Positions 9,966-31,444 of a DNA stretch of 64,000 nucleotides are shown piece by piece. Under the pieces are notes generated by a model, which saw only the letters and a program-made list of their open reading frames with translations, did no database searches and was not told the origin of the DNA. A program made the translations under genes and the position numbers. Numbering within the stretch: the first letter of the stretch is position 1; each line of letters starts with the position of its first letter. Source of the stretch: Candidatus Altiarchaeota archaeon (lineage in GTDB: Archaea > Altiarchaeota > Altiarchaeia > IMC4 > SCGC-AAA252-I15); the NCBI GenBank assembly GCA_043800255.1, contig JAZDNF010000008.1, positions 32,001-96,000 on the forward strand, read 5' to 3'.

Positions 9966-10128
9966 TGGGCCTGCGGAGATTTGAACTCCGGACCTCTCGA
10001 TTTCAGAAGCGACGCGTAATTCGCGTCCTGCACCTCCCGTCTTTTTTCTTTGGGGGTGAAGCACCTTTCTTTTCTAAAGAAAGGGGCTCTATCAGTCGAG
10101 TGCTCTAACCAGTCTGAGCCACAGGCCC
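9966..10128 (-). tRNA. tRNA-Ile(GAT) with 88-nt intron at 37/38 (10002-10089)
   Basis: GGGCCTG/CAGGCCC acceptor, CTCGA/TCGAG anticodon stem, GTTCAAATC; BHB with one U.U mismatch. Confidence 0.95.
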
Positions 10129-10173
10129 TTGTAAGCAAAAGGTGAGTTAATCTTAGTGATTTAATACTAAAAT

Positions 10174-10436
10174 AAGTTTTTCCTAAAAGAAAAAGGCTTG
10201 TCGAGTGCTCAGCGCGAGAAGCTCTGCTTCTCGGCTCGCCAAAATCGCAGTGGCGATTTTGCGCGTAACCAGTCTGAGCCACAGGCCCTTGTTTATTCTT
10301 TAGTTATTATGGGCCATTAAGCGACCGAAAGGGAGCGCATATGGCTCAACCGAGACATCCGTCTCGGTGAGCACGAAGACGAATGTCTTCGTTGCTCCTT
10401 TGGCCAGCCTTTAAAAAGGCTGTGAGCCACAGGCCC
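10174..10436 (-). repeat. Two truncated tandem copies of tRNA-Ile 5' part with inserted hairpin modules
   Basis: 10200-10210 plus 10266-10292 identical to 10095-10132, split by a 55-nt insert; 10423-10436 is a 14-nt copy. Confidence 0.9.
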
Positions 10437-10482
10437 GTGAAAATTTGAGGTTATTTTTAGTGTTTTTAAGATAAAAAATAGT

Positions 10483-10821
10483 CTACTTAATCCATTTTTG
10501 TCTGGCTTTTTTGATGGTGCCGCTGACTCCTATGATGTGGGGGAGTACGGGCGTCTTGTTTATCTCTGTTATTGTTACTATTGAGGCTCTCACTGGGTCG
10601 ACTGTCTTATGGTTTGTTTTTAGTATTCCAATGTTCTTGTTCTCATCCCATTCTATGAGCCAGAGGCTGGTTGTGGCGGCCTGCACCTCCCCCAGAAGCC
10701 TCTGAGTTGCGTTCAACAGCGCGTGTAGGACGTCCTTCTCATTCAGCCTAACGCTGGATTCTACCTTCAAGACCAGGTACCGGTTCCGTTCCCTCAATGT
10801 TGGGGGGTAGCGTGCTGCCAT
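10483..10821 (-). CDS. rnp2: RNase P protein component 2 (Pop5/Rpp14)
   Basis: PPTLRERNRY ... GVSGTIKKA; start placed at MAARY. Confidence 0.9.
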   Translation of the reverse strand: MAARYPPTLRERNRYLVLKVESSVRLNEKDVLHALLNATQRLLGEVQAATTSLWLIEWDENKNIGILKTNHKTVDPVRASIVTITEINKTPVLPHIIGVSGTIKKARQKWIK

Positions 10822-10823
10822 GG

Positions 10824-12278
10824 TTATTTTTTCTTCCAGTAATCTGCGTGTTTTTTCTCCACCTTTACTCTGCTGAGGAGGTTTATTATCGCATAGGATG
10901 CGAACATTATCTCGAACGGTATAAGCGGCACCTTGTACCTCTGCATGTAGAAGCTGACCATGTAGGTGACCGTGGTTATCGCAAAATATAGGTAAAATAT
11001 GCTGTGCTGCTTCCAGTATCGTTTGCAGGTTAACGCGACCCCGGCCAGAGTTAGAATCCACAGAGGCCACGCGTATGCGAGGTAATTCTCAGGATACCAT
11101 CGTAGTATGCACGTTTCAGTGGGTATGAACCAGAATTCTGTCAAGAAACGGTTTATCTTCTGTATGAAGATGTCCGGGTGCGCGGTTATGTGCTCTAGCG
11201 CGAGTTTTATCGCCAGCCTGTTCTTCGCCGCATCGTAGTTGGGCTGCGCCGGGTCCAAATTCTCGAAGGGGCTATAGTGGACTCCCTCCGGAGGCGAGTG
11301 CTCGTAGCATCCTGAGCTGTAGGGGTTGTTCCCGATCCAGAAGTTGACTCCGCTGTTCGTTGAGACGAACACGATTTCTCCGCCGCTGACGTTGTAGTTC
11401 CTGATGAACCAGGGCAGCTGTATTATGAGCACGGCCGCCAGGAGTATGGCCGAGAGCCGGAGCACATGCTTGCGGTCTTTCAGGTTTATGAGCAGCCAGA
11501 TTATGATCGCAGGTATCAGGAACACGGTCTGGGCTTTCAGGTACAAGGAAAAACCCACGGCAGCGCTAGCAACAATCCACGATTTCAGGTTGTTGTATTT
11601 TCGGAAGATGAACATGCAATAGAATCCAACCAGGAGAACGGATATGAGAAGCATCTCATTGTAGAGGTTTGTGGCATGGAAGAATAGGTCCAAATCGACC
11701 AACGAGATTACGAACGACGCCCACGCGACTCTGTCGTTGAAAAGCAGCTTCGCTATCTTCCACAACAGGAAGGCGTTTATTACGCTAAGGAGCACGAGAC
11801 TGAGCCTCCCGATAACATAGTCTCCGCCGAACAGGTAGTAGACCATGCCCAGGAAGTACGAGAACCCGGGCTCGTAATAGTATCCTGGGAATCCCTTCCC
11901 GCCTGCTATGCTCAGCCCGAACCTGTGATAGCCTTCGTCATCTTGGCCTGGGAGAGGCGCCCTATAGTCTCTGGCGAAGTCGACCTTCATGTAAGTCGAG
12001 CCTATGAGGATGAACAACGTTATGAGGGCGACAAGCGGCCTCTCTTTTATGAAATTGACCACGTCGGAGAGTGTGGAGTTGATGTCCTCCAGCAGGTTGT
12101 ATTCGTTCTCGAACTCGAGGCCACAATTGGGGCAGTAGGGGTAGTCGTCTCTTATAGGTGAGTCGCATTCACCACACCTGAGTTCTGTTTTCAGCTTTTT
12201 CACCACCCTGGTCCTGCATTCGGGGCAGCTGCTGTCGCCTTCAGCAAGCTCTCTCCCGCAATTGTAACAGTAGGCCAT
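10824..12278 (-). CDS. GT-C (GT39/ArnT-like) glycosyltransferase with N-terminal double zinc ribbon
   Basis: Four CxxC, DDEGY, P.FSYFLG, PWFIRNY, NFWIGNNP, RYKVP; many TM helices. Confidence 0.85.
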   Translation of the reverse strand: MAYCYNCGRELAEGDSSCPECRTRVVKKLKTELRCGECDSPIRDDYPYCPNCGLEFENEYNLLEDINSTLSDVVNFIKERPLVALITLFILIGSTYMKVDFARDYRAPLPGQDDEGYHRFGLSIAGGKGFPGYYYEPGFSYFLGMVYYLFGGDYVIGRLSLVLLSVINAFLLWKIAKLLFNDRVAWASFVISLVDLDLFFHATNLYNEMLLISVLLVGFYCMFIFRKYNNLKSWIVASAAVGFSLYLKAQTVFLIPAIIIWLLINLKDRKHVLRLSAILLAAVLIIQLPWFIRNYNVSGGEIVFVSTNSGVNFWIGNNPYSSGCYEHSPPEGVHYSPFENLDPAQPNYDAAKNRLAIKLALEHITAHPDIFIQKINRFLTEFWFIPTETCILRWYPENYLAYAWPLWILTLAGVALTCKRYWKQHSIFYLYFAITTVTYMVSFYMQRYKVPLIPFEIMFASYAIINLLSRVKVEKKHADYWKKK

Positions 12279-12315
12279 CTTCTGGAGTATAAGATTATGT
12301 TTAATTAAAATTTAA

Positions 12316-13341
12316 GTGAGGATGAAATCCGAGGTACTATATTATAGTAATACTGGGAGGATTAGGGAGGGCGTTGACAGGTTCCTCAAGGTTGTCTCCG
12401 ATGACCTTGGAAGGGACGGGGTAGCTTTCAAGATACACTTCGGCGAAAAGGGGAATGATACGCACATAAGGCCCAAATGGGTTAAGGGCATTCCCGAATA
12501 CTTCAACGACCCTGTGTTCGTCGAGTGCAATGTGATGTACAGGGGCTCGAGGACGAGGCGTTCAGACCATCTGAAGATGGCGAAAGAGCATGGCTTCGAT
12601 TTCATCAACATAGACATACTGGACGGCGAGATGGGTGAGGATTCTGTTGACGTGCCAGTCGCGCTGAAAGGCAGGAAGTCCGTGAAGCTTGGGGCTGGCA
12701 TACTAAAGTATGACAGGCTGGTGGCGCTCTCACACTTCAAAGGCCATATGGCGACCGGCTTCGGAGGCGCGCTGAAGAACATTGGCATGGGCTTGGGCTC
12801 GAGGGCTGGGAAGATGGAGATGCATTCTATAATCTCGCCCTACGTTGACAGCGCCAAATGCACTGCCTGCGGCGTCTGCGTGGAAAACTGCGACTTCAAC
12901 GCCATCGAATTGGGCAAGGCTGCCAGCATAGACAAAGAAAAGTGTGCAGGCTGCGCCAGGTGCATCGCAGTATGCCCGAACGGCGCGGTCAGCATACCCT
13001 GGGATATGAGCGACGAGGTTAATAACAGACTAATGGAGAACATCGCAGACTACGCCTTCGGCGCAACATCAGGGAGGAGATGGTGGTACATCAATTTTTT
13101 GACTGACATGACAGTGGACTGCGATTGCATGCCGCACGCCCAGAAGAGAATCGCCGATGACATTGGGATTCTGCTGTCAAAGGACCCGGTAGCGATAGAC
13201 CAGGCCTCCCTGGACTTAATAGTCGAGAAGAACGGCAAAGACCCGTTCAAAGCAGCCAACAAAGTGGACAGCTCCCACATTCTGGAGTATGGCGAAAGCA
13301 TCGGCCTCGGAACCAGGGAGTATACGCTGAATCGTATTTAA
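12316..13341 (+). CDS. DUF362 domain Fe-S protein with 2x[4Fe-4S] ferredoxin domain
   Basis: KIHFGE, SHFKGH, GGALKNIGMG, two CxxCxxCxxxC, DPVAIDQAS. Confidence 0.9.
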   Translation: MRMKSEVLYYSNTGRIREGVDRFLKVVSDDLGRDGVAFKIHFGEKGNDTHIRPKWVKGIPEYFNDPVFVECNVMYRGSRTRRSDHLKMAKEHGFDFINIDILDGEMGEDSVDVPVALKGRKSVKLGAGILKYDRLVALSHFKGHMATGFGGALKNIGMGLGSRAGKMEMHSIISPYVDSAKCTACGVCVENCDFNAIELGKAASIDKEKCAGCARCIAVCPNGAVSIPWDMSDEVNNRLMENIADYAFGATSGRRWWYINFLTDMTVDCDCMPHAQKRIADDIGILLSKDPVAIDQASLDLIVEKNGKDPFKAANKVDSSHILEYGESIGLGTREYTLNRI

Positions 13342-13365
13342 TTGCGGGCTTCCAATAATAATGTT

Positions 13366-15300
13366 ATGCGCACAGCAGAGGCTGGTTTAAAGCAGAAACC
13401 TGAAGGCACTTCTAAGTTTGACGTCCCGCTCAAGCAGGTCACAGGCTCAGACAAGCAATCGGAAGGGCAACTTGTTCTAGTCATCCTGGACGGCTGGGGT
13501 TTGGACAAAAAACTGAACGGTTGGGCTGACCCAGCTAACAGGAAGAAACTGACGGGAAATGCGATAGCGATGGCTAAGACCCCGAATATGGACTGGCTGT
13601 GGGCCAGTTACCCTCATCTCGTGATGAAAGCAAGCGGAGACCACATCGGCCTCAGGCCGGCAGACCCGACCATCGGACGGCAGGATGAGGAGGGGAACAG
13701 CGAAGTAGGCCACATGAACACCGGCTCAGGCCAGAAGCTCACGCTCTCGAAAGGCATAGACGAGAAGCTCGCTGACGGCTCCTTCTTCGAGAATCCTACA
13801 CTGAGAAAGGTCATGCAAAATGCCGTGGACAACGGCAGGCCGTTGCACATCTTTGGGATGGTGTCTGACATGGGCGTCCACAACAGGATAGACCACATGT
13901 TCGGGCTTTTTGAACTTGCGAAACGCGTTGGAGTGAAGGACGTACTGGTTCACGCCTTCACGGATGGCAGAGACACTGTCGAAAAGAACGAGGCAGTTTT
14001 GGGCGACGGGACAGGATACTTCGAGAAAGTGGTTGACGGGATAAAAAAATTCAACGCAGAAGCCGGAGGAAAGACTAGGGTCAAAGTAGCTTCCATCATG
14101 GGCCGCAGCTGGGGAATGGACAGAAACGATGAGAACTGGGACAAGACCGTATTCGCCTACAAGAGCATGCGATTCGGCGTTATTGTGGATGATAATGTGA
14201 CGGTTCGGACAGCTAAGGACCCGATAGAAGCCGTTAAAGCAGCGTATACGACTGAGAAGAAGAGGGGGGAATTCGAATCGGACGAGGACATAGTTCCAAC
14301 ACTGATCGTCGGGGCAGACGGCAAACCGATAGGCATAATACGCGACGGCGACTCAGTAATCGCAGCCAACTTCAGGAAGGACCGGATGATACAAATCACC
14401 AAGTGCTTTGTGGAGGATAACCTCTGGGACAAGAAGCACAACCCTGTTGACCTCAAAAGAGGGCCGGGAGACAAAGACGAGAAACCGGAGGTCGCCTTCA
14501 CAGGCCTGACATACTACTATGACGAGCTCAGAGGCAAGGTTGGGATGGCATTCACGACGGAGCCGCCGAAGAATACACTCTCAGACGTCCTGTATGAGGC
14601 TGGCAGGAAATCCTGGGCATGCGCAGAGTCGAACAAGTACAGTCACGTGACCCAGTATTTCGCAGGAGGCGAGCGCGACAAGCCGCTTCCCAACGAGGTC
14701 TGGGATCTCGTGGAATCTCCAACAGTGGTAGTGAATGGGAAAAAACAGAAAATCCAGACCGTAGACCTGTGGAGGAAGCCTGGCATGAGCGCGGCAGCCG
14801 TCGCAGACCACGCGGTTGATGCCATCAGCTCCGGCAATTACGATTTTGTCAGAATGAACTTCGCGAACCCGGATATGATAGGACACTGCGATCCTGTAAT
14901 AGGAGCAACCGATTTGGAGGGCAACAGGATAACATCAAGCGTAGATTCGGCAAAATTCGCCGTGGAGGCTGTCGACCGCCAGGTTGGCAGAATCGTGGAA
15001 GCCTGCCAGAAAACCAACTCCACCCTCATAATCACAGCAGACCACGGCAACGCTGAGGTGATGATCAACCAGAAGGGGACTACGAGCAAAAAGCACACGA
15101 ACAACGACGTGCCCTTTATCGTCATCCCCGCCAGGGGGACGAAAGTCGAACTCGCTTCTGATGATGCCCGCGGCAGGGCGGCTGAACTGAGGGACATCGC
15201 GCCCACGATACTCACCCTCATGAACTTAAAAGACAGAATCCCTAAGGAGATGACAGGGAAAAACCTTGCGACCAGGATAACCCACGCCAACACCGTCTGA
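13366..15300 (+). CDS. gpmI: 2,3-BPG-independent phosphoglycerate mutase (bacterial GpmI type, with insertions)
   Basis: LVILDGWG, GNSEVGH, DGRD, NFRKDR, NFANPDMIGH, TADHGNAE. Confidence 0.92.
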   Translation: MRTAEAGLKQKPEGTSKFDVPLKQVTGSDKQSEGQLVLVILDGWGLDKKLNGWADPANRKKLTGNAIAMAKTPNMDWLWASYPHLVMKASGDHIGLRPADPTIGRQDEEGNSEVGHMNTGSGQKLTLSKGIDEKLADGSFFENPTLRKVMQNAVDNGRPLHIFGMVSDMGVHNRIDHMFGLFELAKRVGVKDVLVHAFTDGRDTVEKNEAVLGDGTGYFEKVVDGIKKFNAEAGGKTRVKVASIMGRSWGMDRNDENWDKTVFAYKSMRFGVIVDDNVTVRTAKDPIEAVKAAYTTEKKRGEFESDEDIVPTLIVGADGKPIGIIRDGDSVIAANFRKDRMIQITKCFVEDNLWDKKHNPVDLKRGPGDKDEKPEVAFTGLTYYYDELRGKVGMAFTTEPPKNTLSDVLYEAGRKSWACAESNKYSHVTQYFAGGERDKPLPNEVWDLVESPTVVVNGKKQKIQTVDLWRKPGMSAAAVADHAVDAISSGNYDFVRMNFANPDMIGHCDPVIGATDLEGNRITSSVDSAKFAVEAVDRQVGRIVEACQKTNSTLIITADHGNAEVMINQKGTTSKKHTNNDVPFIVIPARGTKVELASDDARGRAAELRDIAPTILTLMNLKDRIPKEMTGKNLATRITHANTV

Positions 15301-15301
15301 G

Positions 15302-15455
15302 CTTTTGTCAAGAACCGCTGGTGTGGCGGAGGCAGATGCCTCCGACACGCGCCCGAGCAAGGCTCGGCCGCGTCAGAGACCGGCGGCATGAAATCAGAGG
15401 GGAAATAGTCTTGACAGAAGATTTCCGCCACCAGTCAATAGACTGGTGGAAATCT
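15302..15455. repeat. MITE-like nested inverted repeat with double-hairpin core
   Basis: 12-bp inverted repeats (11/12) at 15302-15313 and 15409-15420; internal hairpins CGGAGGC/GCCTCCG and CCGAGC/GCTCGG; further hairpin ~15419-15455. Confidence 0.55.
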
Positions 15456-15486
15456 CTGATTTATACCGTGCCATTTCATAGTTATC

Positions 15487-16035
15487 ATGGAGTTCATGAC
15501 AGATGCGTTGCTGGAAGTCGGAAAGGCAGGATTGTTAATTGCATCTGAGGTTGTAATCATCATAGTAGTCGCCCACGTTCTCATAAAAACCGTGGACAAA
15601 CTGCTTGGAAAGATCCTCAAGTTCACTAACTTCGACAGGACGCTTGAGAAGTTCTTCCACAAGAGCGTTATAATGCTGCTATGGATACTGACAGCAGGAG
15701 TCATCCTGCTGGTTCTGGGAGTCGACCTGAACACGCTCCTAGCCAGCTTCGGGGTGATGAGCTTCATAGTCGGTTTCGCGCTGAAGGACACCCTCAGCAA
15801 CTTCGCCTCAGGGATTATGATACTCGTCAACAAACCATTCGTCGTCGGGGATGACATAGAAATCAAAGAGGCGAAGGGCACGGTCAAAACGGTCAGCATG
15901 ACGTACACCAAAATCGTCACAAAAGACGGCGCCAAAATAACCATCCCCAACAATGTAGTCTGGAGCAACCCCATAATAAACCACACAGCATACAGGGCGA
16001 AAGACAGAGTCAGGAGAGAGGGGGAAGCTCAGTAG
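15487..16035 (+). CDS. mscS: Small-conductance mechanosensitive channel family protein
   Basis: GFALKDTLSNFASG, KPFVVGD, IPNN. Confidence 0.9.
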   Translation: MEFMTDALLEVGKAGLLIASEVVIIIVVAHVLIKTVDKLLGKILKFTNFDRTLEKFFHKSVIMLLWILTAGVILLVLGVDLNTLLASFGVMSFIVGFALKDTLSNFASGIMILVNKPFVVGDDIEIKEAKGTVKTVSMTYTKIVTKDGAKITIPNNVVWSNPIINHTAYRAKDRVRREGEAQ

Positions 16036-16126
16036 GTTGTTTATTTTTCTACGGAACCGCGGGGGGAGAGCACAATCTCGTGTAATGCGCTCGGTTTAAT
16101 AACGGAACTGATACATAGGTGATAAT

Positions 16127-16273
16127 ATGGCCTCTAAGAGATTTTTCAGGTGTAATGTCTGCAATGACGTACACTTCGGGCTGGCAGGCCCCGCAGTATG
16201 TCCGACATGCCAGGCTAAGAACGCCTACGTCGAGATTGACGCCCAGGAAGCTAGGAACGTGATGAACTTATGA
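16127..16273 (+). CDS. Small rubredoxin-like protein (48 aa, absent from ORF track)
   Basis: Manual translation MASKRFFRCNVCNDVHFGLAGPAVCPTCQAK...; AGGTGA SD; ATGA overlap with next gene. Confidence 0.8.
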   Translation: MASKRFFRCNVCNDVHFGLAGPAVCPTCQAKNAYVEIDAQEARNVMNL

Positions 16274-16536
16274 ACAAACAGGAGCTTAGGGCGGCTTGGG
16301 AAAAGTTCACGGAAAAAAACGACTTCAAACTGAACCCTGACGACGAACACGTATCTCTCGTCATAGAAGGCGTTCTCGAGAACGAGAGAAAATGCGGCCT
16401 CAAACTGTGCCCCTGCAGGCTGAGGGACGGCAGCAGGGAGATGGATTTGAAGCTCATATGCCCATGCAACTTCAAGGCCCAGGACACATGGAAAACGAAG
16501 GGACAGTGCTGGTGCGGCCTGTTCGTCAGAAAATAG
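16270..16536 (+). CDS. Ferredoxin:thioredoxin reductase catalytic subunit
   Basis: CPCR, CPC, CWCGLF motifs. Confidence 0.92.
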   Translation: MNKQELRAAWEKFTEKNDFKLNPDDEHVSLVIEGVLENERKCGLKLCPCRLRDGSREMDLKLICPCNFKAQDTWKTKGQCWCGLFVRK

Positions 16537-16574
16537 GTTAATATTTTATAATACAATAATATTGGGGTGACAGC

Positions 16575-17426
16575 ATGAGAACAGCAGTTATCGGAATATT
16601 CATCGCATTACTTGTTTTGGCTTCAGGGTGCACTAAGGAACCATCAGTCCCTGCGACAACGACGGTTACGCCCACATCAGCCGAGACGACTGTCGCAGTA
16701 AAGCCTTCGATAAAGGTCTCCACCAACCCAGCTGGCAGCACCGTCAGCGTCGACAGCCTGTACGTGGACGAGGACGGTTTCGTGGTAATACATAAGTTCG
16801 AGAACGGCCAGCTTGGGGAAGCCGTAGGCAACACTTACGTCACAGCAGGCCAGAAATCCGACGTCGAAGTTGGGATTTCCGGCGTCGAGGCTCCAGCGGA
16901 GCTTATTGCGATGCTCCACTATGATGACGGCGACGGAGTCTACGAGTTCCCGGGGCCTGACGGGCCGGTGAAGATTGGCGACATGATAGTGATGACAAAC
17001 TTCAGCCTCGTTGAGGCAACAGGAATCCAGTGCATAGACTGCGCTACAGGCTACACTGGAGGCGGATGCGCGACCGTGGATGATGTAACAGGAGAGATTG
17101 TCTCACCGCCGCCGTGCGTTCTGGAGGAGACTACCACATCCGTCACCGTGAGCGTTAAGGAATTCGACATCACAGCCAAACGGTTCAGCTTCACCCCGTC
17201 AACGATCAGGGTAAAGCAGGGCGACAATGTCAGGATAAGATTGACGAGCGCCGACGTCACGCACGGCTTCGCGATATCAGAATACGAGATAGACGAGAAG
17301 GTTAGCGGAGGCGAGACGAAAACGTTCGAGTTCACTGCTGACAAGGAGGGTATGTTCACCTTCAAGTGCTCCGTCTACTGCGGCACAGGCCACATGAACA
17401 TGAAAGGAACTCTGATAGTGGAGTAG
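16575..17426 (+). CDS. Lipoprotein with C-terminal CuA-type cupredoxin domain
   Basis: LASGC lipobox; HGF ... CSVYCGTGHMNM. Confidence 0.85.
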   Translation: MRTAVIGIFIALLVLASGCTKEPSVPATTTVTPTSAETTVAVKPSIKVSTNPAGSTVSVDSLYVDEDGFVVIHKFENGQLGEAVGNTYVTAGQKSDVEVGISGVEAPAELIAMLHYDDGDGVYEFPGPDGPVKIGDMIVMTNFSLVEATGIQCIDCATGYTGGGCATVDDVTGEIVSPPPCVLEETTTSVTVSVKEFDITAKRFSFTPSTIRVKQGDNVRIRLTSADVTHGFAISEYEIDEKVSGGETKTFEFTADKEGMFTFKCSVYCGTGHMNMKGTLIVE

Positions 17427-17427
17427 G

Positions 17428-18050: not shown

Positions 18051-18055
18051 CTCAA

Positions 18056-18120: not shown

Positions 18121-18204
18121 AACTCATGAGGTGAGCGCAATGGGGCCAGGCTGCTGTTAATCTGAAGGATAATTAGTATAGCACCATCTTCTTTATTTAT
18201 TAAT

Positions 18205-18714
18205 ATGAAACTGACTGAGAATAGGATTTTCGCATTTATACTGTTGGTTGTTATCCTCTTTGTATTCGCAGCCTACGTTGTGAACTACAACAGGGAGGGA
18301 ATTACAAGACCTATAGAGGCGCAATCGTCTACGACAACGACATTGACTGCAACGACAATCCAGACCACGACGATAGAGCCTGTCTCGGACGTTAACTCGC
18401 AACCGACAGAGGTGGAAGAACAGTCTACGACGACCACGCTGCAACCGGCCTCCACGGCGAACTCGTACTTTTCCAGGTTCGAGGGGAGGGGCTACAGGCA
18501 CGCATACGTTGGCGTCATCTATCAGTGCCCGAGCTGCGTGCCGGCGATAGCCTCAGTACTTAATGACGAGCCGGGAGTAATCGCAAAGAGCATGGCATAC
18601 AAGCAGAAAGTCAGCTGGGTTGTCTATGACCCAACGGAGGTCACACCAGAGAGGATGGTCTCGATCTTGGGCAGTAGCGGCGAAGCCAGCCTGATAAACG
18701 ACACAGCCATCTGA
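18205..18714 (+). CDS. Membrane-anchored heavy-metal-associated (HMA) domain protein
   Basis: N-terminal TM, Thr-rich linker, CPSC, VVYDP. Confidence 0.75.
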   Translation: MKLTENRIFAFILLVVILFVFAAYVVNYNREGITRPIEAQSSTTTTLTATTIQTTTIEPVSDVNSQPTEVEEQSTTTTLQPASTANSYFSRFEGRGYRHAYVGVIYQCPSCVPAIASVLNDEPGVIAKSMAYKQKVSWVVYDPTEVTPERMVSILGSSGEASLINDTAI

Positions 18715-18715
18715 C

Positions 18716-21782: not shown

Positions 21783-21786
21783 GATT

Positions 21787-22771: not shown

Positions 22772-24010
22772 ATGCCACTCTCGATTGTTATCCTCCTTGC
22801 TGTGTTTGTCCTGATAGCGGTGAGGAGAATAGGCAACCTCAGACTGGAGATATGGCAGATCATGCTCTTTGGCGCCTTGGCTGCACTGCTGACCGGACAG
22901 ATATCTGCGGCGGAAGCGCTCATGTCCATAAACTTGGACGTCATGCTCTTCCTGTTTGGGATGTTCGTCGTAGGCCAGGCTCTTGAAGAAAGCGGCTATC
23001 TTGCGCACATCTCATACAAGTATTTTAAGCGGGTGAAATCCGTTGACGGTCTTATACTTGCAATCCTGTTTGGCATGGGCACGGCGTCAGCATTTCTCAT
23101 GAACGACACACTGGCTATTATTGGAACGCCTGTGGTGCTGTTGCTTGCAAGGAAGCACGGCATAAGTCCTAAGGTACTGCTTCTTGCGCTTGCGTTTGCG
23201 GTGACGATAGGCAGCGTTATGAGCCCCATCGGGAACCCCCAGAACCTGTTGATTGCAGTACAGGGCGGGATAGGAAACCCGTTTCTGACGTTCTTCAAGT
23301 TTCTGCTGATACCGACAGTAGTGAACCTGTTCATGGCGTATCTCCTCTTGAAGTTCTTTTATGGGGAACACTTTCATAGCAGCTCATTGAGCCATTCCCA
23401 GGAGCCTATACGAGATCACAAGCTTGCGGTGCTTTCTAAGATTTCCCTCCTCCTGGTCGTAATCATGGTTCTTCTGAAGATGGTCGTATTTTTTGTCGGT
23501 TTGGGCTTTGAATTCGGGCTTACCTATATCGCGCTTGTTGGAATGTTACCTGTCCTGTTGAGCGGCAGGAGGCTTCATATTCTAAAATCGATAGACTGGC
23601 ATACTCTGATCTTCTTCGCCGCTATGTTCATCCTGATGGAAAGCGTGTGGGATTCCGGGTTTTTCCAAACGATTATCGATGATACGGGTTTCAGCATATC
23701 CTCCATTGGCATGATATTCGCCGTTGGCGTCATCCTGAGCCAGCTCATATCGAACGTGCCTTTGGTCACACTCTACCTGCCCCTGCTGGTACATGCAGGC
23801 GCCTCTACGAAGGAGATGTTAGCATTAGCTGCCGCCAGCACGATTGCCGGCAACCTGTCGATTTTGGGCGCAGCGAGCAATGTCATAATAGTGCAGAACG
23901 CTGAGAAGAAGTCGGGGGAGACGCTGACCTTCTGCGAGTTCGTCAGAGTCGGCGTACCGCTCACGGTATTGAATGTTGGAGTATACTGGGTTTTCCTTGT
24001 GCTTGTTTGA
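22772..24010 (+). CDS. ArsB/NhaD (SLC13-like) anion permease
   Basis: AFLMNDT, SPIGNPQN, ISNVP, GAASN. Confidence 0.9.
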   Translation: MPLSIVILLAVFVLIAVRRIGNLRLEIWQIMLFGALAALLTGQISAAEALMSINLDVMLFLFGMFVVGQALEESGYLAHISYKYFKRVKSVDGLILAILFGMGTASAFLMNDTLAIIGTPVVLLLARKHGISPKVLLLALAFAVTIGSVMSPIGNPQNLLIAVQGGIGNPFLTFFKFLLIPTVVNLFMAYLLLKFFYGEHFHSSSLSHSQEPIRDHKLAVLSKISLLLVVIMVLLKMVVFFVGLGFEFGLTYIALVGMLPVLLSGRRLHILKSIDWHTLIFFAAMFILMESVWDSGFFQTIIDDTGFSISSIGMIFAVGVILSQLISNVPLVTLYLPLLVHAGASTKEMLALAAASTIAGNLSILGAASNVIIVQNAEKKSGETLTFCEFVRVGVPLTVLNVGVYWVFLVLV

Positions 24011-24064
24011 CTGCTTTTTTAGTTGGAGGTTCAATCATCTCTTATTAGTTTTTATCTTGAGGGG

Positions 24065-24505
24065 ATGATGCGGGGCGTTAAGTTGAATCAAAGATTGAAG
24101 GACTTTTTTGACAGGACTCTTAGGGCTAAGAGGTCCCCTCATTCCATAGCATTGGGTTTTGCCATCGGCAGTTTCATCGCCATAATGCCGACGCCAGGCT
24201 TCGGGACGCTGTTAGGCCTTCTTGTAGTCTTACTTTATAAGAAGGTTAACAAGCTCTCTGTTTTCCTGGGGCTGGCATTTTGGAATCCGCTGACGCTGGT
24301 GCCGCTCTACATACTGAGTTACAAGATCGGGGACATGCTCTTAGCCCCTGTGCCCGTGGTAGACTATGATATAGGGGTGATGTACGCCGGCTACCATTTA
24401 ACGAGGCGGTTCCTGTTGGGCAACCTTATCCTCTCAACACTGTTGTCAACAGTCAGCTATGCTGCTGTGAGACTGTACGTCGAATCTCAGCAGAAGAAGC
24501 TGTGA
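24065..24505 (+). CDS. DUF2062 family membrane protein
   Basis: SPHSIALGFAIG, NPLT..PLY..SYKIG. Confidence 0.85.
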   Translation: MMRGVKLNQRLKDFFDRTLRAKRSPHSIALGFAIGSFIAIMPTPGFGTLLGLLVVLLYKKVNKLSVFLGLAFWNPLTLVPLYILSYKIGDMLLAPVPVVDYDIGVMYAGYHLTRRFLLGNLILSTLLSTVSYAAVRLYVESQQKKL

Positions 24506-24595
24506 GGAACACACAAATCTAGGATATACTCTAGACTGTCCGCAATATAGATTAAAAAAAAAGGATAATGGGCTTTTTTGCAGCCCCGCTCATCT

Positions 24596-24790
24596 TCAGA
24601 TGACTTTCACGTTTCCGGCTTTTGGCCCGCGGTCTCCTTCTACTATGTCAAATGAAACGCGGTCGTTTTCGTTGAGCGTTTTGCCGCTTTTGAGGGCGCT
24701 CTCGTGGACGAAGTAGTCTTTACCGTCGTCGCCGTTTATGAAGCCGAACCTTTTCATCCTGTTAAAGAATTTGACTGTTCCTTCAACCAT
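24596..24790 (-). CDS. csp: Cold-shock domain protein
   Basis: GTVKFFN, FGFI, DYFVH, GPKAGNV; GGAGGTGA SD. Confidence 0.93.
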   Translation of the reverse strand: MVEGTVKFFNRMKRFGFINGDDGKDYFVHESALKSGKTLNENDRVSFDIVEGDRGPKAGNVKVI

Positions 24791-24956
24791 TGTAGTATCA
24801 CCTCCATGTAATGCTTATTTTCCGCCCGAATTGGACGTTAAATCCTAGTTGGATTCTGTTAGAAACAGAAAGAACATGCGGGAACATAAGTCAACAATAG
24901 GTAAGTGTTTTTCTACCTATTAGGGTTTTATGCTTAAAAATCAAACTATCCTGTCC

Positions 24957-25481
24957 TTACAGGTCGTCCAGGGCATCTCCCAGCAATCCCCGCACCCGTT
25001 TCTTCTCATTCAGGAAGTATTGCCTCACAAGGGCCAGGTGGTATATGGGCTTGGCCATTATCTGAGCGGGGGTGGAATCAGCCAGCAGTTTCATCACCGC
25101 CTCCTGGTCCCACGAGTCCATACCCCTCTCAACTCTTATAGTCTCCGCCTTGCTGTCCAGTCTTCCGCCTTCGGATTCCCACAGCTGCTTTAACGCTGAG
25201 AAAACTTTGGAGTTGAGGTCGTCTTCCAGCTTTTTCATAGAGAGGCCGAAAATCACAGCATCGATTTCTTGTTTGCCTAGCATGTCCCCTAACTGCGGCC
25301 CGAAGGTTGCTGCACCCTCAATCAGCGAGTCTTCTGATAGCTGGGTTCGTGGTTTCCGGCCTAAAGATTTTGGCATAAGCTCTCTCAGCTTCTGGATAGG
25401 GGAGCCCTGCTTTTCCCTGTCGTCTTCTTTTTTCTTAGGCTGCCGGCGCCTGTCCTTTGGGAATTCTATCAGCTCTCCCAT
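24957..25481 (-). CDS. Hypothetical protein
   Basis: 174-aa ORF with charged N-terminus; divergent from next gene. Confidence 0.6.
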   Translation of the reverse strand: MGELIEFPKDRRRQPKKKEDDREKQGSPIQKLRELMPKSLGRKPRTQLSEDSLIEGAATFGPQLGDMLGKQEIDAVIFGLSMKKLEDDLNSKVFSALKQLWESEGGRLDSKAETIRVERGMDSWDQEAVMKLLADSTPAQIMAKPIYHLALVRQYFLNEKKRVRGLLGDALDDL

Positions 25482-25516
25482 GGTTTATTACAATGAACGC
25501 CGGGATAATATATACT

Positions 25517-26665
25517 ATGGACCGGGTTGTCTTGCGCAGGGCATCTGATGGACTCGCGCAAGAGGTCAGGCAGAACCTGGAAGCCATTGAGAGGCTGACT
25601 CCCAAGGAGGCTGGCAAATTGAAGCCTGCTGTCACGGAGGAGCTGAAAGTTGACTTGCACCATCACTTCGTGCCTTCTACGAATCCTGCCAAGCGGGCTA
25701 AACAGGTTAGGGCGTTCTGGAAGGCTGTGCAGGCGAGCGATTTGGATGCTGTCGCCGTAACAACGCACAGTGACATCGAAAGAGGCGACGTCAATCCTGA
25801 GTCCATCTATCGTGAGCTTAGGGAGGCAATGCCTGAGAAGCTCAGGAAAGGCAAGTTCAAGCTTTTGGCTGGGCTTGAAGTCCAGTGCAGACCGAATAAA
25901 ACGGAGATAGGTCTGATATCCCCTGAGCCGGACCTCCTCTATAAGGATCCCTTCTGGTATTCGATGCCCTCTGCAGATGATGTTGGGAGGAAAATAAGAG
26001 ATGACAGCAGGCTGCTTGGTTATTTGCCGCATCCTTTCTCCGGTTCTGGGGGAGCTGCTCATGGATCACACATGGGCGCGGACGAGGCTAGGAGGCTGGT
26101 GGGAGAATACGGCCTCGGCGTTGAATTCACTGGCATGTACAGGGACGGTAAGCTGCTGACGCAGCAGCCTATTTTGAGGCAGCTTTTAGGCCTTTTTGAG
26201 ATGCTGCCTCAGAAGAATAAGGTTCTGACGAAGATTGCGGCCGTGTCCGAGGGCTTCAGGCGGGCGGATGAGGAGGTGCATAGGAGCGGGCTGGCGGGTG
26301 AAGCCAGGTTCGTAACAGTCGGAGGCGACTATCATGATGCGAAAGACCTCGGCAAATCTTACATACTCGTTCCTGTGAAGAAAAAGTCCGATAAGCCGCT
26401 CAGCCAACAGTATGACATTCTGGAGAGCGGGGGCGGCATGATCCTGTTGGAGGCGAGCAAAAGCGCAGTCTCGGATGCTGCTGGCAGGCCTGCCTCAGAG
26501 GAGGAGATCATCGAAAGCATCAAAACGACAAAAGACACTGCGGAACCCCACCTGCAGGGAGAGCAGGGGAAAGACTTCAAGCTGCTCCTGAACCTGACAG
26601 CCGAATTCGCAAGAGAGACGAAAGCCAACCTCAGAGAAAAACGCCTAGTGAAAAAACAAGAATAG
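25517..26665 (+). CDS. Divergent PHP-domain metallo-hydrolase-like protein
   Basis: DLHHH, AVTTH, GLEV, PHPF, GGDYH. Confidence 0.7.
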   Translation: MDRVVLRRASDGLAQEVRQNLEAIERLTPKEAGKLKPAVTEELKVDLHHHFVPSTNPAKRAKQVRAFWKAVQASDLDAVAVTTHSDIERGDVNPESIYRELREAMPEKLRKGKFKLLAGLEVQCRPNKTEIGLISPEPDLLYKDPFWYSMPSADDVGRKIRDDSRLLGYLPHPFSGSGGAAHGSHMGADEARRLVGEYGLGVEFTGMYRDGKLLTQQPILRQLLGLFEMLPQKNKVLTKIAAVSEGFRRADEEVHRSGLAGEARFVTVGGDYHDAKDLGKSYILVPVKKKSDKPLSQQYDILESGGGMILLEASKSAVSDAAGRPASEEEIIESIKTTKDTAEPHLQGEQGKDFKLLLNLTAEFARETKANLREKRLVKKQE

Positions 26666-26846
26666 ACTCTGTCAAATCCGAATCTTGCCGAAGGTGGGAA
26701 CCTAAACATTGGTACAAGAGGAGTTAAAAACGTTAGACTGTGAGGTAACAAAAAAGACGGCATAAAATAGATTTCAGACTGATTCTACTGAAGATATTAT
26801 AGAACAATGATATAAAAAGCGTTATGTTCTTATACATAAACTGAGG

Positions 26847-27221
26847 ATGAAAGCGTTGCATAGTTTTGTTCATCAGAGTAGGGAGGGTAAGATAACTTCT
26901 TTGTCAATGTATTTGGCTGATTCTGGGCAGGCGTTGAACATGTCAGTTAGTGAGAAGATCAACGACACATCGGAGATAATCCGGGTGAAATTCAACTTGA
27001 ACGAGATCGCAGCAATGTCTAAACTAAACACTTGGTCTACCTACCACTCCTTTGAGAAGGAGGGTAAGACGTCAGAGACTCGGATAAACTGGAACACCCC
27101 CTTCTTCAGCGTTGAGAAGGAGGGTAAAAAGATCGCGATAAAATTCACCGACGCTGAAATTTATGGGTTTCAGATGACGCTGGAGACCGCATTCCAAGAG
27201 CTGATCAGAAGAGGAAAATAG
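26847..27221 (+). CDS. Hypothetical protein, possible Whirly/PC4-like fold
   Basis: Two-fold internal repeat (KFNLNEI / KFTDAEI); EKEGK twice with a 16-nt DNA repeat. Confidence 0.55.
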   Translation: MKALHSFVHQSREGKITSLSMYLADSGQALNMSVSEKINDTSEIIRVKFNLNEIAAMSKLNTWSTYHSFEKEGKTSETRINWNTPFFSVEKEGKKIAIKFTDAEIYGFQMTLETAFQELIRRGK

Positions 27222-27228
27222 ATTATTT

Positions 27229-28758
27229 CTAGTTGTTTTTAGATTCGCTGATACCTTCAAAATCGATATACCCTCGCGTGGGATCCACATTGATCAATCT
27301 AACACGAACTTTCTGTCCGACAGCCATTCTTTCCCCTCCATGCATGACCCTGCCTTCTACTGGTGGTGAGATAATCCGTACATAAGTTCCCTTTTCAGAA
27401 GCCCCGGTGACAATCCCATCAAATGAGTCCCCTAATCTATCACCCAATAATACCGCTGCCGCTGCCTTTCGCATGAAACGTTCAACCTTCTGAGCAGCTT
27501 TGTCGCGATCAGTACACCACAATGAAAGTTCAATTAACTCTTTTTGAGTATACGGACTTGATTCTTTTGCCAGAACTGATTTAAAAAGCCGTTGAAGAAT
27601 AACATCCACATAACGTCGGTTAGGGGCTGTAGCATGAGTGTAGTCCATAACGGCAAGGCCAAAATGGCCATATGAAGGCTTACCCGGCTCAAGCATGACA
27701 TATTCGCCTGCCCCCAACAACTTTACGATCGTTAAAGACAGATCAGGGAAATGTTCGGAATCAACCTCTTTTTGCCTAATGAGAAATTGTGAAAGCGCCT
27801 TTGAGTCAGGTTCAGAAGGCAAAGTCTCACCGTGGGCGACAGCGACATCCATTATACCCCTCCAGTTTCGAGGAGTGCGGACGACCCTCTGGATTACCGG
27901 AATTCCTGCTTTTTCTAAAAAATTCATCATCGTCACATTGACGGCTATCATAAGGTTCTCAATCAAGTATCGTGCTCGATTTTTCCTTTGGATTACTAAA
28001 CCTTTTACCCTCTCGTTCTCCACAACCGGTTTAGGTTCGATTGTGTCCAATTCAAGAGCCCCTTTGTCCATACGAAATTTTCTTAAACGTTGCGAGGCCT
28101 CATCCTGCAGGGCAAGTTGTTCTTCTAGCCCGGGAATTTCCCGTACGAGATGGGGAGCAGGGCCCTTCCCCTCAAGCCAGTCACCGATTTCTTCATAAAT
28201 AAGCTTTGCTTTATTGCGCACAATCGCACGGTATATGTCTCCTGAGCGGATGCTCCCGTCTAAAAGGACTGCAAACTCGATGACAACTGCCAAGCGGTCT
28301 TGGCCAGCTCGCAGAGAGGAGAGATCAGTAGACAACCTATTTGGAAGCATTGGGAAAATCTCTATCCCAGTATAAACCGATGTGCCATTTTGAACGGCAT
28401 GCTGGTCAGTTTGGGAGTTTTTTGGGGCAAACAAATCAACATCAGCAATAGCAACCTTAACCAGTATCTCTTGGTTGGAACCATGCTCACAGTATTCTAG
28501 TTGATCAAGGTCCAGAGAATCCTCATTATCGATTGAAGACCATAATAATGAACGAAGGTCTCTGGCATCATTTTGACCGCCTTTCAAAAGCTGTTTTACA
28601 TTGATAGCGTTGACTTCATTTATCACAAGCTTTGGGAATTGGGATTGGAAACCATATTTATTCATCGCCTTTCTGGCTATGGCCTTAAGGTCTAGGTTAC
28701 GGTAATTAGCGATATTTCCTATCCTCTCTCCCCCACTTTTTCGCTTAGGACGTTCCAT
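27229..28758 (-). CDS. RNB-domain exoribonuclease (RNase II/R family)
   Basis: SIDNEDSLDLDQ, VAIADV, LIENLMIA, HFGLA...YTHATAPNRRYVD, C-terminal S1; start uncertain. Confidence 0.92.
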   Translation of the reverse strand: MERPKRKSGGERIGNIANYRNLDLKAIARKAMNKYGFQSQFPKLVINEVNAINVKQLLKGGQNDARDLRSLLWSSIDNEDSLDLDQLEYCEHGSNQEILVKVAIADVDLFAPKNSQTDQHAVQNGTSVYTGIEIFPMLPNRLSTDLSSLRAGQDRLAVVIEFAVLLDGSIRSGDIYRAIVRNKAKLIYEEIGDWLEGKGPAPHLVREIPGLEEQLALQDEASQRLRKFRMDKGALELDTIEPKPVVENERVKGLVIQRKNRARYLIENLMIAVNVTMMNFLEKAGIPVIQRVVRTPRNWRGIMDVAVAHGETLPSEPDSKALSQFLIRQKEVDSEHFPDLSLTIVKLLGAGEYVMLEPGKPSYGHFGLAVMDYTHATAPNRRYVDVILQRLFKSVLAKESSPYTQKELIELSLWCTDRDKAAQKVERFMRKAAAAVLLGDRLGDSFDGIVTGASEKGTYVRIISPPVEGRVMHGGERMAVGQKVRVRLINVDPTRGYIDFEGISESKNN

Positions 28759-30887
28759 CTCTCTTTTTCTTCTTCGTTAAACGAGCTTTTTACCTGCTTT
28801 AATGCCTGCTGGAAGTGTTTCATGGTGACTTTCCTTGAAGTCGGCTTGTCTTTGCTTTGGCCTATTGACTCGCGTATGGCGTTCATCCCAGCTTCCCTAC
28901 ATACTGCGGAGATGTCTGCTCCGTTATAGTTTTCAGTCGCGTTCACCATTTCATCTAGTTTTATGTCTGAGTCAAGATTCATCTTTTTCATGTGCACTTT
29001 AAAAATCTTTTCGCGGCTTATCTTGTCTGGGAAGGGGACGTAGATAATCTTGTCCAATCTTCCGGGGCGCATCAACGCTTCATCCAAAAGATCCGGCCTG
29101 TTTGTAGAGCCTATTATCATGACGTCCTTAAGCTCTGATACTCCATCTATTTCGGTTAATATTTGAGCGACGACTTTTTCGTTCACGTCGCTTCCGAAGC
29201 TTTCACCTCTTTTCGGGATTAGGGCGTCCAGTTCATCGAAGAATATGATTGCTGGAGCAACTTGTCTTGCCCTGCTGAATACCTTCCGTACTCCTCGCTC
29301 AGACTCTCCCACGTACTTGTTCAATAGTTCCGGGCCTTTTATTGATATGAAGTTTACTCCGGATTCTTTTGCAATGGCTTTAGCGAGCATGGTTTTTCCG
29401 CAACCTGGCGGCCCGTATATCAGCACACCTTTAGGCGGCGCTACTCCAGTCTCCTTGAACATGCTGCTGTATTTGATAGGCCATTCAATGCTTTCCTTGA
29501 GTTGTCCTTTGACTTTTTCAAGTCCGCCTATATCGTCCCAGGTTACGTTGGGTATTTCAACTGAGACTTCACGCATGGCTGATGGTTCCACCCTGCTCAT
29601 GCCCTCATGGAAGTCTTCTCCAGTAATCTTTATTTTGTTTAGTATGTCCGTTGAAAGCTTCATATCTTTCGCCTTCTTTATATCCGGCATCAGTTTCCTC
29701 AACGCTTTCATGGCTGCTTCCTTGCAGAGTGCTTCAAGGTCCGCTCCAGTGTAGCCGTAAGTTATGTCTGCAAGGTGGTCAAGATTCACGTCTTTAGCTA
29801 GAGGCATGCCTCTTGTATGAATCTGCAAAACTTCCTTCCTACCGTTCCGGTCTGGAACCCCAATCTCAATCTCTCTGTCGAACCTACCCGGCCTTCTAAG
29901 GGCAGGGTCTATTGAGTCCGGCCTGTTGGTTGCTGCAATCACTACAACTTCTCCTCTCGACTGGAGACCGTCCATAAGCGTTAAGAGCTGGCTTACGATT
30001 CTTTTTTCAACTTCGCCATGGACTTCCTCACGGCTGGGTGCTATAGCGTCAATCTCGTCAATGAATATTATCGCGGGAGTGTGTTCTTGCGCATTCTTGA
30101 ATACTTCCCGCAAGTTTTCCTCACTTTGACCGTAGTATTTGCTCATAATTTCCGGGCCGTTCAGTGATATAAATTGAGCGTCGGTTTCGCTTGCAACCGC
30201 TTTTGCAAGAAGGGTTTTTCCGGTTCCGGGAGGCCCGTATAACATGACTCCTTTCGGCGGTTTTATTCCTAGCTTTTGGAAGACTTCAGGATGTTTTATC
30301 GGAGTTTCAATCATTTCTCTTATCGCGTCTATCTCATCTTTGAGCCCGCCGATGTCCTCATACCTTATTCCAGGAGACAGTTCAGTAGTCTTCACCGGAT
30401 TTTTGGATATCCTGATTTCAGTGTCGGGGGTTACAATGACTATCCCTTTTGGCTTGATGCGGGTAACCATCAACGGGAGTTGAACTCCCATGACATCTAC
30501 AACGACAACATGTCCTTGCATGAAGGGCATATTCATTAACTTCTCCTGCAGGTATATTGGAAGATCATCTCCAAACTCTATGGGCTGAAAGGGACTGAAT
30601 TGTATCTCACTCGCCTTACTGTAGTCGACTTTTTCTACTTTGACCTCTTCGTCAATGCTTGCGCCAGCATTGTGCCTTATTATCCCATCAAGCCGTATAC
30701 TACCCCGCCCCTCATCTTCCATCTGCCCGGGCCAGGCTCTTGCAGAAGCTTTCTTTTTACCTTCTATGACAAGTATATCCCCCGGTGAAAGCTTCATCTT
30801 TCTGAATACTACAGGGTCTATCCTTGCAATACCCCCACCCACTTCGTTTACCCTAGCCTCCTTGACTTTTAAAATCGCGTCTTTCAT
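28719..30887 (-). CDS. cdc48: CDC48/VAT AAA+ ATPase
   Basis: N-domain, two AAA modules ([16 protein letters not shown]), RRPGRFDRE. Confidence 0.95.
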
Positions 30888-31198
30888 TCTACCCTCTCTC
30901 TGGATCTCCATCCACAATGTCTTTCACATAGACGGTCATACCATCAATAAAGGAAATGCAAACTACTTGGGAAGGATATTAGAATACAACAATAAATCCA
31001 CTGTTTTGGCTTAGTCAAGGAAGATAGAACGCAACGCGGCTTAGAGTAGGTAAAAGTAGTGAACATCACAACACAATAAGCAAAGTGAGTGGGCTAAGTG
31101 CTCTGACACATCAACTGGAGGATAAGGTTCGAAGTTACAGTGTTAGAGTTCAAGTCCCTAAGGGCTCTGAAAAAACACGAATCAAAAGGATGCTCAGT

Positions 31199-31231
31199 GC
31201 GGCTAAGCGAGCGTTAGCGAGCGCATGCCGC
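31199..31231 (+). repeat. TAAGCGA...GAGCGCAT hairpin module (also at 3090-3125 and 10311-10347)
   Basis: Invariant core with covarying stems across three tRNA loci. Confidence 0.8.
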
Positions 31232-31259
31232 TCCCTGGCGTAAACGGACAGTGTCGGTT

Positions 31260-31444
31260 TGCCGAAGGCGGGACTCGAACCCGCGACCTCCAGATAACTC
31301 AGCGTTATCGTGAAATCTTCCCTAGCCTTTGGCTACGGTGCCCGGCCCCAAAATTTTTTCTTTGGGGGTGAAGCACCTTTCTTTTCATAAAAGAAAGGGG
31401 CTCGCTTATGAGTCTGGCACTCTGCGCTACTGAGCTACTTCGGC
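31260..31444 (-). tRNA. tRNA-Met(CAT), elongator type, with 111-nt intron at 37/38 (31296-31406)
   Basis: GCCGAAG/CTTCGGC acceptor, CCAGA/TCTGG stem, GGTTCGAGTCC, perfect BHB; D-loop lacks GG. Confidence 0.9.

Follow-up and report, generated by a model that had tools for sequence, protein, structure and literature searches.

In this study, a 64,000-nt stretch of DNA from a Candidatus Altiarchaeota archaeon (GenBank assembly GCA_043800255.1, contig JAZDNF010000008.1, positions 32,001 to 96,000; hereafter the window) was analysed for a short repeat shared by the introns of two tRNA genes. The window's own genome (G000) is a metagenome-assembled genome (MAG) of 1.75 Mb in 17 contigs and is 93% complete. 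Both genes lie on the minus strand. The tRNA-Ile(GAT) gene, located by ARAGORN with introns permitted, occupies 9966–10128 and consists of a 5′ exon (10090–10128), an 88-nt intron (10002–10089) and a 3′ exon (9966–10001). The tRNA-Met(CAT) gene, located by Rfam and ARAGORN, occupies 31260–31444, with a 5′ exon at 31407–31444, a 111-nt intron at 31296–31406 and a 3′ exon at 31260–31295. Default ARAGORN called neither gene, and Rfam found only that of tRNA-Met (RF00005, 52.6 bits); the intron-permitting mode of ARAGORN called both, the Ile gene under the label 'Ser(gga)'. When the introns were removed in silico, ARAGORN recognised the products as tRNA-Ile(GAT) of 75 nt and tRNA-Met(CAT) of 74 nt, in agreement with the identities given in the first-pass annotation of this DNA. 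Each intron is at the canonical position (37/38), one nt beyond the anticodon on its 3′ side, and without it a standard tRNA is obtained.

By eye, the outer helix of a bulge-helix-bulge (BHB) motif can be formed by the GAGCC with which the shared element starts and the 3′ end of the intron. Among the junctions drawn by eye for tRNA-Val, Gln, Glu, Ile and Met, that of Val was clean and that of Ile needed a U-U mismatch; the BHB was absent from the unconstrained minimum free energy (MFE) fold. The splicing endonuclease is encoded once in the genome (PF01974 match, 109.7 bits, in a 179-aa open frame at G000:C8:119565-119825). By position and predicted splicing, the Ile and Met introns are probably archaeal BHB-type tRNA introns.

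The similarity between the two introns was reproduced by script: 33 nt are identical between 10042–10074 and 31354–31386, followed by TAAA in one and ATAAAA in the other and then by 11 more identical nt. The near-identical segments, 10042–10089 and 31354–31403, are both on the minus strand inside tRNA genes. They have the same orientation and stand at the 5′ end of their introns, and the remainders of the two introns are unlike each other, all as first described; the first shared base is nt 1 of the Ile intron and nt 4 of the Met intron. The 48 nt in common represent subfamily 'B' of a lineage-wide repeat with three arms. Read along the tRNA-sense strand, this element consists, in order, of 2–4 C, a pyrimidine arm (arm 1; e.g. 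T4-C-T3-C-T2), a loop, a purine arm (arm 2), a spacer and a second purine arm (arm 3). Arm 2 is the Watson-Crick complement of arm 1, and arm 3 is the mirror image of arm 2, i.e. the parallel complement of arm 1, and not a direct copy. In the Ile intron (10042–10089), GAG is at 10087–10089, the pyrimidine arm at 10076–10086, the loop at 10074–10075, the first purine arm at 10064–10073, the spacer at 10052–10063 and the mirrored purine arm at 10042–10051. The corresponding parts in the Met intron (31354–31403) are at 31401–31403, 31389–31400, 31387–31388, 31376–31386, 31364–31375 and 31354–31363. The two copies differ in the hairpin loop only, and the hairpin of arms 1 and 2 of the Ile copy is present in the MFE fold.

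In most copies of the element the first loop is 0–5 nt long, and the spacer is mostly 7–12 nt and at most about 60 nt, the latter in expanded copies. Two main spacers were distinguished: that of the A type is an 8-nt near-palindrome, e.g. CGTTCACG, with variants CGCTGGCG and CCCTCGGG, and that of the B type is TGCTTCACCCCC. Several spacers form mini-hairpins with G·T wobbles on the sense strand (by eye). GC-rich hairpin pairs of 50–60 nt are inserted in the loop or spacer of some copies, and the arms of those copies are still matched.

BLASTN searches of the genome with 50–52-mers gave five loci at E values from 1e-12 to 1e-24, which excludes chance; elsewhere, just fragments of 12–25 nt were matched. 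The five loci are near-identical B copies (94–100% over 47–50 nt) at the same place in the introns of tRNA-Ile, Met, Gln(TTG), Glu(TTC) and Val(GAC), and the intron of tRNA-Arg(TCG) has a diverged sixth copy at this place. The idea that a single subfamily sits at or within 3 nt of the 5′ splice site in introns of different tRNAs was therefore supported, and the likeness of the Ile and Met introns is not a two-locus event: the two belong to a family of copies. ARAGORN made 34 tRNA calls in the genome, 28 with introns, of which two were judged spurious. A regular-expression search detected the element in 16 of the 26 credible intron-bearing tRNAs, and two more copies (Asp and Ser-GGA) were recognised by eye. 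The genome count refers to copies caught by this expression, which missed the Asp variant, and amounts to at least 31. Besides the 16 in tRNA introns, four copies lie immediately 3′ of tRNA genes, three lie 3′ of three tandem box-C/D-like genes (motifs by eye), six lie 58–160 nt from a tRNA (four upstream in sense and two downstream in antisense orientation) and two are elsewhere. In all, 29 of the 31 family copies are in, or within 160 nt of, stable-RNA genes.

When 90 parsed copies from several genomes were examined, 37 had a tRNA T-loop motif downstream on the same strand, 14 followed directly after a tRNA 3′ end, 3 were antisense and 36 were in neither situation, giving 51 sense to 3 antisense copies. 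The last 36 include copies inside Rfam-confirmed small-subunit (SSU) and large-subunit (LSU) rRNA genes and about 10 nt after 5S rRNA. In genome G023, for instance, elements are inside the SSU rRNA gene (Rfam model positions 1–1478 spread over 1646 nt), inside the LSU rRNA gene, and about 10 nt after the 3′ end of 5S rRNA (loci L066 and L072 on C5 and L078 on C12); the element-bearing insertions in 16S and 23S rRNA are roughly 130–170 nt long. The places occupied, near-always in sense orientation, are thus directly after intron 5′ splice sites, in the rRNA insertions of a relative, 3′ of tRNA, 5S and box-C/D-like genes, and about 80–110 nt upstream of some tRNAs. What they have in common is that a segment which is removed from a stable-RNA precursor starts there.

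Co-variation of the three arms was examined in 108 distinct copies from G000 and loci in other genomes. Of these, 96 could be run-length coded (12 were unparsable), and 88 had a matching first run in arms 1 and 2 (8 were dropped). In 86 of these 88 copies, the A-run of arm 3 beside the spacer was as long as its counterparts in arms 2 and 1, the lengths being 3, 4, 5 and 6; 100,000 permutations gave at most 49. The alternative of a direct repeat fitted 15 of the 88. Classes of spacer type and run length were consistent in 47 of 49 cases, and the arms have therefore changed together many times within spacer types. A hold-out set of 58 copies from three further genomes (1 unparsed, 5 dropped) gave a first-run match in 50 of 52 copies (permutation maximum 33) and a second-run match in 28 of 28. 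Over both sets, the arms co-vary in 136 of 140 copies. All three arms of the G023 version have T4/A4 in place of T3/A3, and a rare C-T-C variant of arm 1, found in two copies, is mirrored as G-A-G in both purine arms. Positions were counted from the parsed copies and not from the MAFFT alignment, in which the purine arm is one column out of register. Among 878 in-register positions, 734 were T-A·A and 120 were C-G·G (together 854), with 24 others. The hairpin of arms 1 and 2 was Watson-Crick at 879 of 890 positions; the exceptions, 4 T·G and 7 C·A, were all near the loop, and such a small G·U versus C·A count did not discriminate which strand folds as RNA.

Mirror repeats would not be expected from any polymerase-based copying process, so that a folded-back triple helix is the simplest physical reading of the mirrored arm 3. 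The arms appear to be in the register of an intramolecular purine-motif triplex, with T-A·A and C-G·G triads on the strand described here and T·A-T and C+·G-C triads on the opposite strand, and a folded-back three-stranded helix is probably what selection maintains. Three-way co-variation of this kind is rare evidence, from sequence only, for an extended natural triple helix.

This design is close to that of the bacterial PIT/BoxC/TMECO repeats, as described by Holder et al. 2015 (PMC4666352). These repeats have the same order on one strand, i.e. pyrimidine stem, loop, purine stem, loop and mirrored purine stem; they are likewise multi-copy, with conserved stems, and linked with rearrangements. 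According to the same source, the class II purine-motif design has its arms in the order pyrimidine-purine-purine, the third being mirrored, and the TMECO/BoxC sequence of E. coli folds as DNA in vitro. The present element has the 5′ pyrimidine stem, the purine stem, the antiparallel third purine stem and the T-A·A/C-G·G triads of this class. It differs in being archaeal and A/T-rich, the bacterial repeats being G/C-rich, and in its second loop, mostly 7–12 nt but as long as about 60 nt when expanded, compared with 3 nt in the bacterial repeats and 1–6 nt in the ITxF loop rule given there (PMC4666352). Furthermore, it exists as many co-varying variants, whereas PIT/BoxC/TMECO is one near-invariant sequence, and it is strongly associated with stable-RNA genes and with a single orientation, whereas TMECO is described by Holder et al. 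as intergenic, with no strand bias or gene-class link. Overall, the three-armed element appears to be without a description in print among the papers found, and its architecture appears to be kin to known bacterial intrastrand triplex repeats.

Triple helices of the MALAT1/ENE type have a comparable architecture. The strand antisense to the tRNA would read U-rich, U-rich and A-rich, with the right polarity and for 8–14 triples, as in these RNAs. In contrast to them, the U-rich strand here is not the tRNA transcript, the copies being sense-oriented 51 to 3, and we know of no antisense RNA for the element. Triple helices of U·A-U and C+·G-C triads are listed as general RNA classes in a review (PMC13541005).

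B-type copies were found in the same tRNAs of other genomes, namely tRNA-Met of G005 and G012, tRNA-Ile of G020 and G019, and tRNA-Glu, tRNA-Gln and tRNA-Val at loci L014, L027 and L021, respectively. Segment identities were calculated from orthologs of Met (in two relatives), Glu and Gln only, the Ile and Val genes of G000 being left out. The element was 91–96% identical (48/53, 49/53, 48/50 and 48/53), the exons 81–100%, and the rest of the intron 46–70% (48/72, 47/67, 26/47 and 28/61). Across families, a stretch of 45 nt is 100% identical in genome G036, and the tRNA-Ile gene of G022 has a B element with two inserted hairpin pairs together with the same 3′ hairpin as the window's intron. 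The intron copies also keep tRNA-specific quirks across orthologs, e.g. how long the distal A-run is in Ile, Val and Glu (by eye). Since orthologs of the same tRNA carry the element and the element outlasts the remainder of the intron, the identity indicates conservation, not recency. Each of the Ile and Met introns has kept its own copy, which is about as conserved as the exons, with no recent exchange, and the recent transfer between introns proposed by the first-pass annotation is not supported. A recent transfer or gene conversion within this genome, by which one of the two was copied from the other, would account for copies that differ in the hairpin loop only, and five copies in one genome could homogenise each other. 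We nevertheless consider it improbable, in view of the same subfamily in the same tRNAs of other genera and families, the A-run lengths shared by orthologs and the unrelated rest of the two introns. An assembly artefact, i.e. a collapsed repeat or a chimeric join of two loci of the MAG, has a probability close to nil: each locus is a complete tRNA gene that can be spliced, and the same arrangements of tRNA and element were met again in other genomes and in named public records derived from other assemblies.

The introns themselves are less stable. Of 18 tRNA-Ile(GAT) orthologs, 9 are intronless (including three of the window genome's family), two have short and two have long introns without the element, one has a hairpin only and four carry the element. 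The first-pass annotation had asked for relatives with short introns lacking the element; two such introns (about 19 and 26 nt) were indeed found, whereas four orthologs carry it. In view of the ortholog identities and the cross-family copies, together with the intronless relatives, the element is old and conserved where present, and introns come and go.

A gapped three-arm pattern matched in 56 of the 61 genomes of the phylum set, with 624 matches compared with 15 for the backwards pattern; between relatives, the number per genome ranged from 0 to 52. An exact scan of a 185,579-species collection with a B-type 23-mer gave 16 stretches, labelled Altiarchaeales/Altiarchaeota (7), uncultured Thermoplasmatales (4), uncultured archaeon (2), DHVE2 (1), Promethearchaeota (1) and Euryarchaeota SCGC AAA252-I15 (1). 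The last of these was assigned to Altiarchaeales by Bird et al. (2016), a paper in which the word 'intron' does not occur. Among the papers listed by a literature search, with supplementary tables outside it, none dealt with tRNA introns in this lineage or with elements of triplex type inside such introns.

Families of related introns in different tRNA genes are known from Thermoproteales as 'large-scale tRNA intron transposition' (Fujishima et al. 2010, as told in PMC4090602). The present case resembles them in that very similar intron sequence is found in tRNAs of different identity, and the BHB requirement, thought there to limit where introns persist, can be likened to the situation here (PMC4090602). 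It differs in that only the 5′ part of about 48 nt is shared, the 3′ part being tRNA-specific and drifting even between orthologs; in that the shared part is also found outside introns (trailers, upstream regions and rRNA insertions); and in that the element is three-armed and conserved phylum-wide rather than recently spread.

Partial duplicates of tRNA genes were found beside several copies. Upstream of tRNA-Ile, a partial second copy of its 5′ part is located at 10177–10288 (minus strand), with the tRNA part at 10200–10288 and a degenerate hairpin of arms 1 and 2 at 10177–10196. This copy ends 48 nt before the real gene begins, its D-loop contains an insertion of 54 nt, and it includes a 23-nt exact match. 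Similar partial 5′ copies, each 40–90 nt upstream of the full gene and followed by an element or degenerate hairpin, were observed for tRNA-Glu (G000 C5, about 18440–18500) and in relatives (L011, L016 and L064), and, for tRNA-Arg, a partial 3′ copy lies beside an inverted element. This layout is what unequal crossing-over between upstream and intron copies of the element would give, and the partial 5′ fragments look like products of unequal recombination or half-genes.

We regard it as fairly probable, though not strongly so, that the element is a conserved lineage-wide three-armed repeat whose arms fold as a triple helix in the discarded parts of stable-RNA genes. The fold would be one of DNA, formed by the non-template strand when heavy transcription opens it, comparable to the bacterial class II intrastrand triplex motifs, and would serve at the borders between mature and discarded RNA as a cis-acting, orientation-dependent signal for pausing, termination or insulation; as repeats, the copies would also drive the adjoining partial tRNA duplications. 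Taken jointly, these steps are a tentative guess, with somewhat less than an even chance if the broader explanation is right. A DNA fold is favoured by the folding of TMECO/BoxC as DNA and the reported failure of the purine motif in RNA, by arm 3 abutting the closing helix in some introns and by MFE folds placing arm 3 in a loop. A fold at the RNA level is possible and is favoured by the strict sense orientation, the place right after processing sites and the weak second helix.

Several points weigh against a selected triple helix. A-rich purine-motif triplexes are weak. At least two introns have arm 3 directly followed by a strand of the intron-closing helix, and MFE folds put arm 3 in the hairpin loop, both of which clash with an RNA triplex in the pre-tRNA. 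The copies are kin, so that the permutation maxima of 49 and 33 overstate independence; 36 of the 90 copies are not near a tRNA by the crude T-loop test; and tRNA-Ile is intronless in nine relatives, so no single copy is essential. Moreover, RNA reportedly does not form the purine motif, and the PIT elements of E. coli are reported to be without terminator activity (PMC4666352). A last point is that Ca. Altiarchaeum hamiconexum, of the same lineage, contains conserved MITEs (miniature inverted-repeat transposable elements) at record density, reported as the highest among archaea (PMC11602168).

Such a density would suit a selfish MITE-like repeat that spreads by transposition or recombination and survives where it is harmless, i.e. 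in spliced introns, trailers and RNA-gene spacers, the triple-helix register serving its own mobility (e.g. through a folded single-stranded DNA intermediate) and nothing for the host. Such a repeat would explain the many copies per genome and their strongly varying number between relatives (0 to 52 matches), the patchiness among tRNA-Ile orthologs, the partial tRNA duplications beside copies and the nested hairpin insertions, and the bacterial triplex repeats are reported to be without known function and to go with genome instability (PMC4666352). The element is also, like the MITEs of Ca. Altiarchaeum, a short, abundant, structured non-coding repeat, and its expanded copies resemble short terminal inverted repeats (TIRs) round an insert (PMC11602168). 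This likeness is by description only, and the present element has in addition a third, mirrored arm, no target-site duplication or transposase having been linked to it in this analysis; arms 1 and 2 are inverted repeats usually 0–5 nt apart, and only the expanded copies resemble TIRs around an insert. A selfish repeat is difficult to reconcile with orthologous copies 91–96% identical within introns that are otherwise 46–70% identical, with the 45-mer identical across families, with the sense bias of 51 to 3, and with 29 of 31 copies in or beside stable-RNA genes, themselves a tiny share of the non-coding DNA. In addition, a search for two families, reverse transcriptase (PF00078) and IS200/IS605 Y1 transposase (PF01797), found neither in the 93%-complete genome, and exact-match scans of 2.9 million viral contigs with the 23-mer core and the A-type gapped pattern gave no match, so that a viral or plasmid carrier was rejected. 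We therefore consider the selfish repeat rather unlikely, although it is the main rival explanation. Quite another possibility is an RNA-level module without a triple helix, in which the hairpin and an exposed A-rich segment bind a protein or switch pairings and help the folding, cutting or decay of long introns and trailers. It would agree with the element always beginning just 3′ of a processing site, with MFE folds showing the hairpin and a second helix that encloses arm 3, with arm 3 of the B subfamily equalling arm 2, from its sequence, in its ability to pair with arm 1, and with a helix of at least 6 bp between spacer and downstream sequence in 23 of 32 intron-like copies compared with 6 of 14 trailers and 15 of 44 others. 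However, the second-helix signal is weak (mean of 6.5 bp versus 5.7 in shuffles), and protein binding or alternative pairing does not predict a mirror (86/88) over a copy (15/88); this module seems very improbable.

The bearing of the triple-helix explanation extends beyond these two genes. Most introns of one genome begin with one recognisable module, which is also found behind the 3′ ends of tRNA, 5S and box-C/D-like genes; the module links intron 5′ ends to gene trailers and is a concrete object to trace through the phylum. The question it bears on is the origin and persistence of archaeal tRNA introns, about which an Asgard tRNA-intron preprint (2026; 10.64898/2026.10.13.758758) states that "how they arrive remains open". 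In its boldest form, the explanation would be that a natural intramolecular triple helix of 8–14 triplets, selected phylum-wide, is a cis signal in the making of stable RNA, marks the start of every discarded segment, and seeds the gain of BHB introns and tRNA rearrangement. This is possible but doubtful; if true, it would represent the first extended purine-motif RNA triplex in the case of an RNA fold, or the first intrastrand triplex repeat with a defined gene-level role in the case of a DNA fold.

Further members of the family are present in the window. An A-type element (T5-C-T6 / A7-G-A5 / A5-G-A6) is in the intron of tRNA-Ser(GCT) at 3216–3264 (minus strand). Another is at 31529–31568 (minus strand), about 85 nt upstream of tRNA-Met in sense orientation, with a TATA-like run directly after it. 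An expanded element at 31607–31746 (minus strand) has, from its sequence, the arms T5-C-T4 / A4-G-A5 / A5-G-A4 and GC-rich hairpin pairs in the first loop and spacer. The variant in the intron of tRNA-Asp(GTC), at 41532–41573 (plus strand), was recognised by eye and has short arms and a GC hairpin in the first loop.

The window contains at least six credible tRNA genes, of which default ARAGORN reported one and Rfam two; standard tRNA finders miss most tRNA genes of this lineage. The low tRNA counts (18–24) tabulated for some Altiarchaeales genomes in PMC4975002 may have arisen from the same blind spot.

Pairs of GC-rich hairpins, set in the first loop or spacer of the three-armed element, constitute a second repeat. 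It was found in the window at 31607–31746 and 10340–10400, in the introns of tRNA-Thr(GGT) and tRNA-Gly(GCC) (G000 C5:16194-16380 and C8:278800-278991), and in the tRNA-Ile introns of G022 (L123) and G019 (L125). It is absent from the window's own Ile intron, and therefore looks like a nested, loop-targeting mobile insert. A second intron family, with an intron of about 55 nt containing two GC-rich hairpins, is common to three other tRNA genes (G000 C4:4471-4602, C8:129048-129175 and C12:11512-11648), for which the position given by ARAGORN is odd.

Box C/D guide RNAs have a C box of consensus RUGAUGA and a D box of consensus CUGA. Neither box is present in the 48 nt, and a guide in the shared part was thus rejected; UGAUGA-like words, which the introns of Gln, Glu and Val have close to their 3′ ends, are not kept in orthologs (by eye). 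A tandem array at G000 C13:11480-11860 (plus strand) consists of units of about 130 nt, each with an element behind it and, between that element and the next unit, a TATA-like run; a terminal stem and clear C, D′, C′ and D boxes were recognised in one unit at least.

Directly 3′ of tRNA-Ile and tRNA-Met is a small hairpin ending in GTTTAC (9940–9965 and 31235–31259, minus strand), and a near-identical trailer hairpin of this type is behind the tRNA-Ile of an other-family genome (L109, G035). A leader of about 60 nt with two hairpins precedes tRNA-Met (31445–31505, minus strand). A leader of this type recurs inverted behind tRNA-Arg(TCT) at G000 C13:42535-42660, where it adjoins an inverted element as well as 16 duplicated nt from the 3′ end of tRNA-Arg. 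Just beyond the window, at G000 C11:96624-96757, there is a second tRNA with a CAT anticodon, which carries an A-type element and has exons 87% like those of tRNA-Ile(GAT); it may be the AUA-reading tRNA-Ile2 rather than a tRNA-Met.

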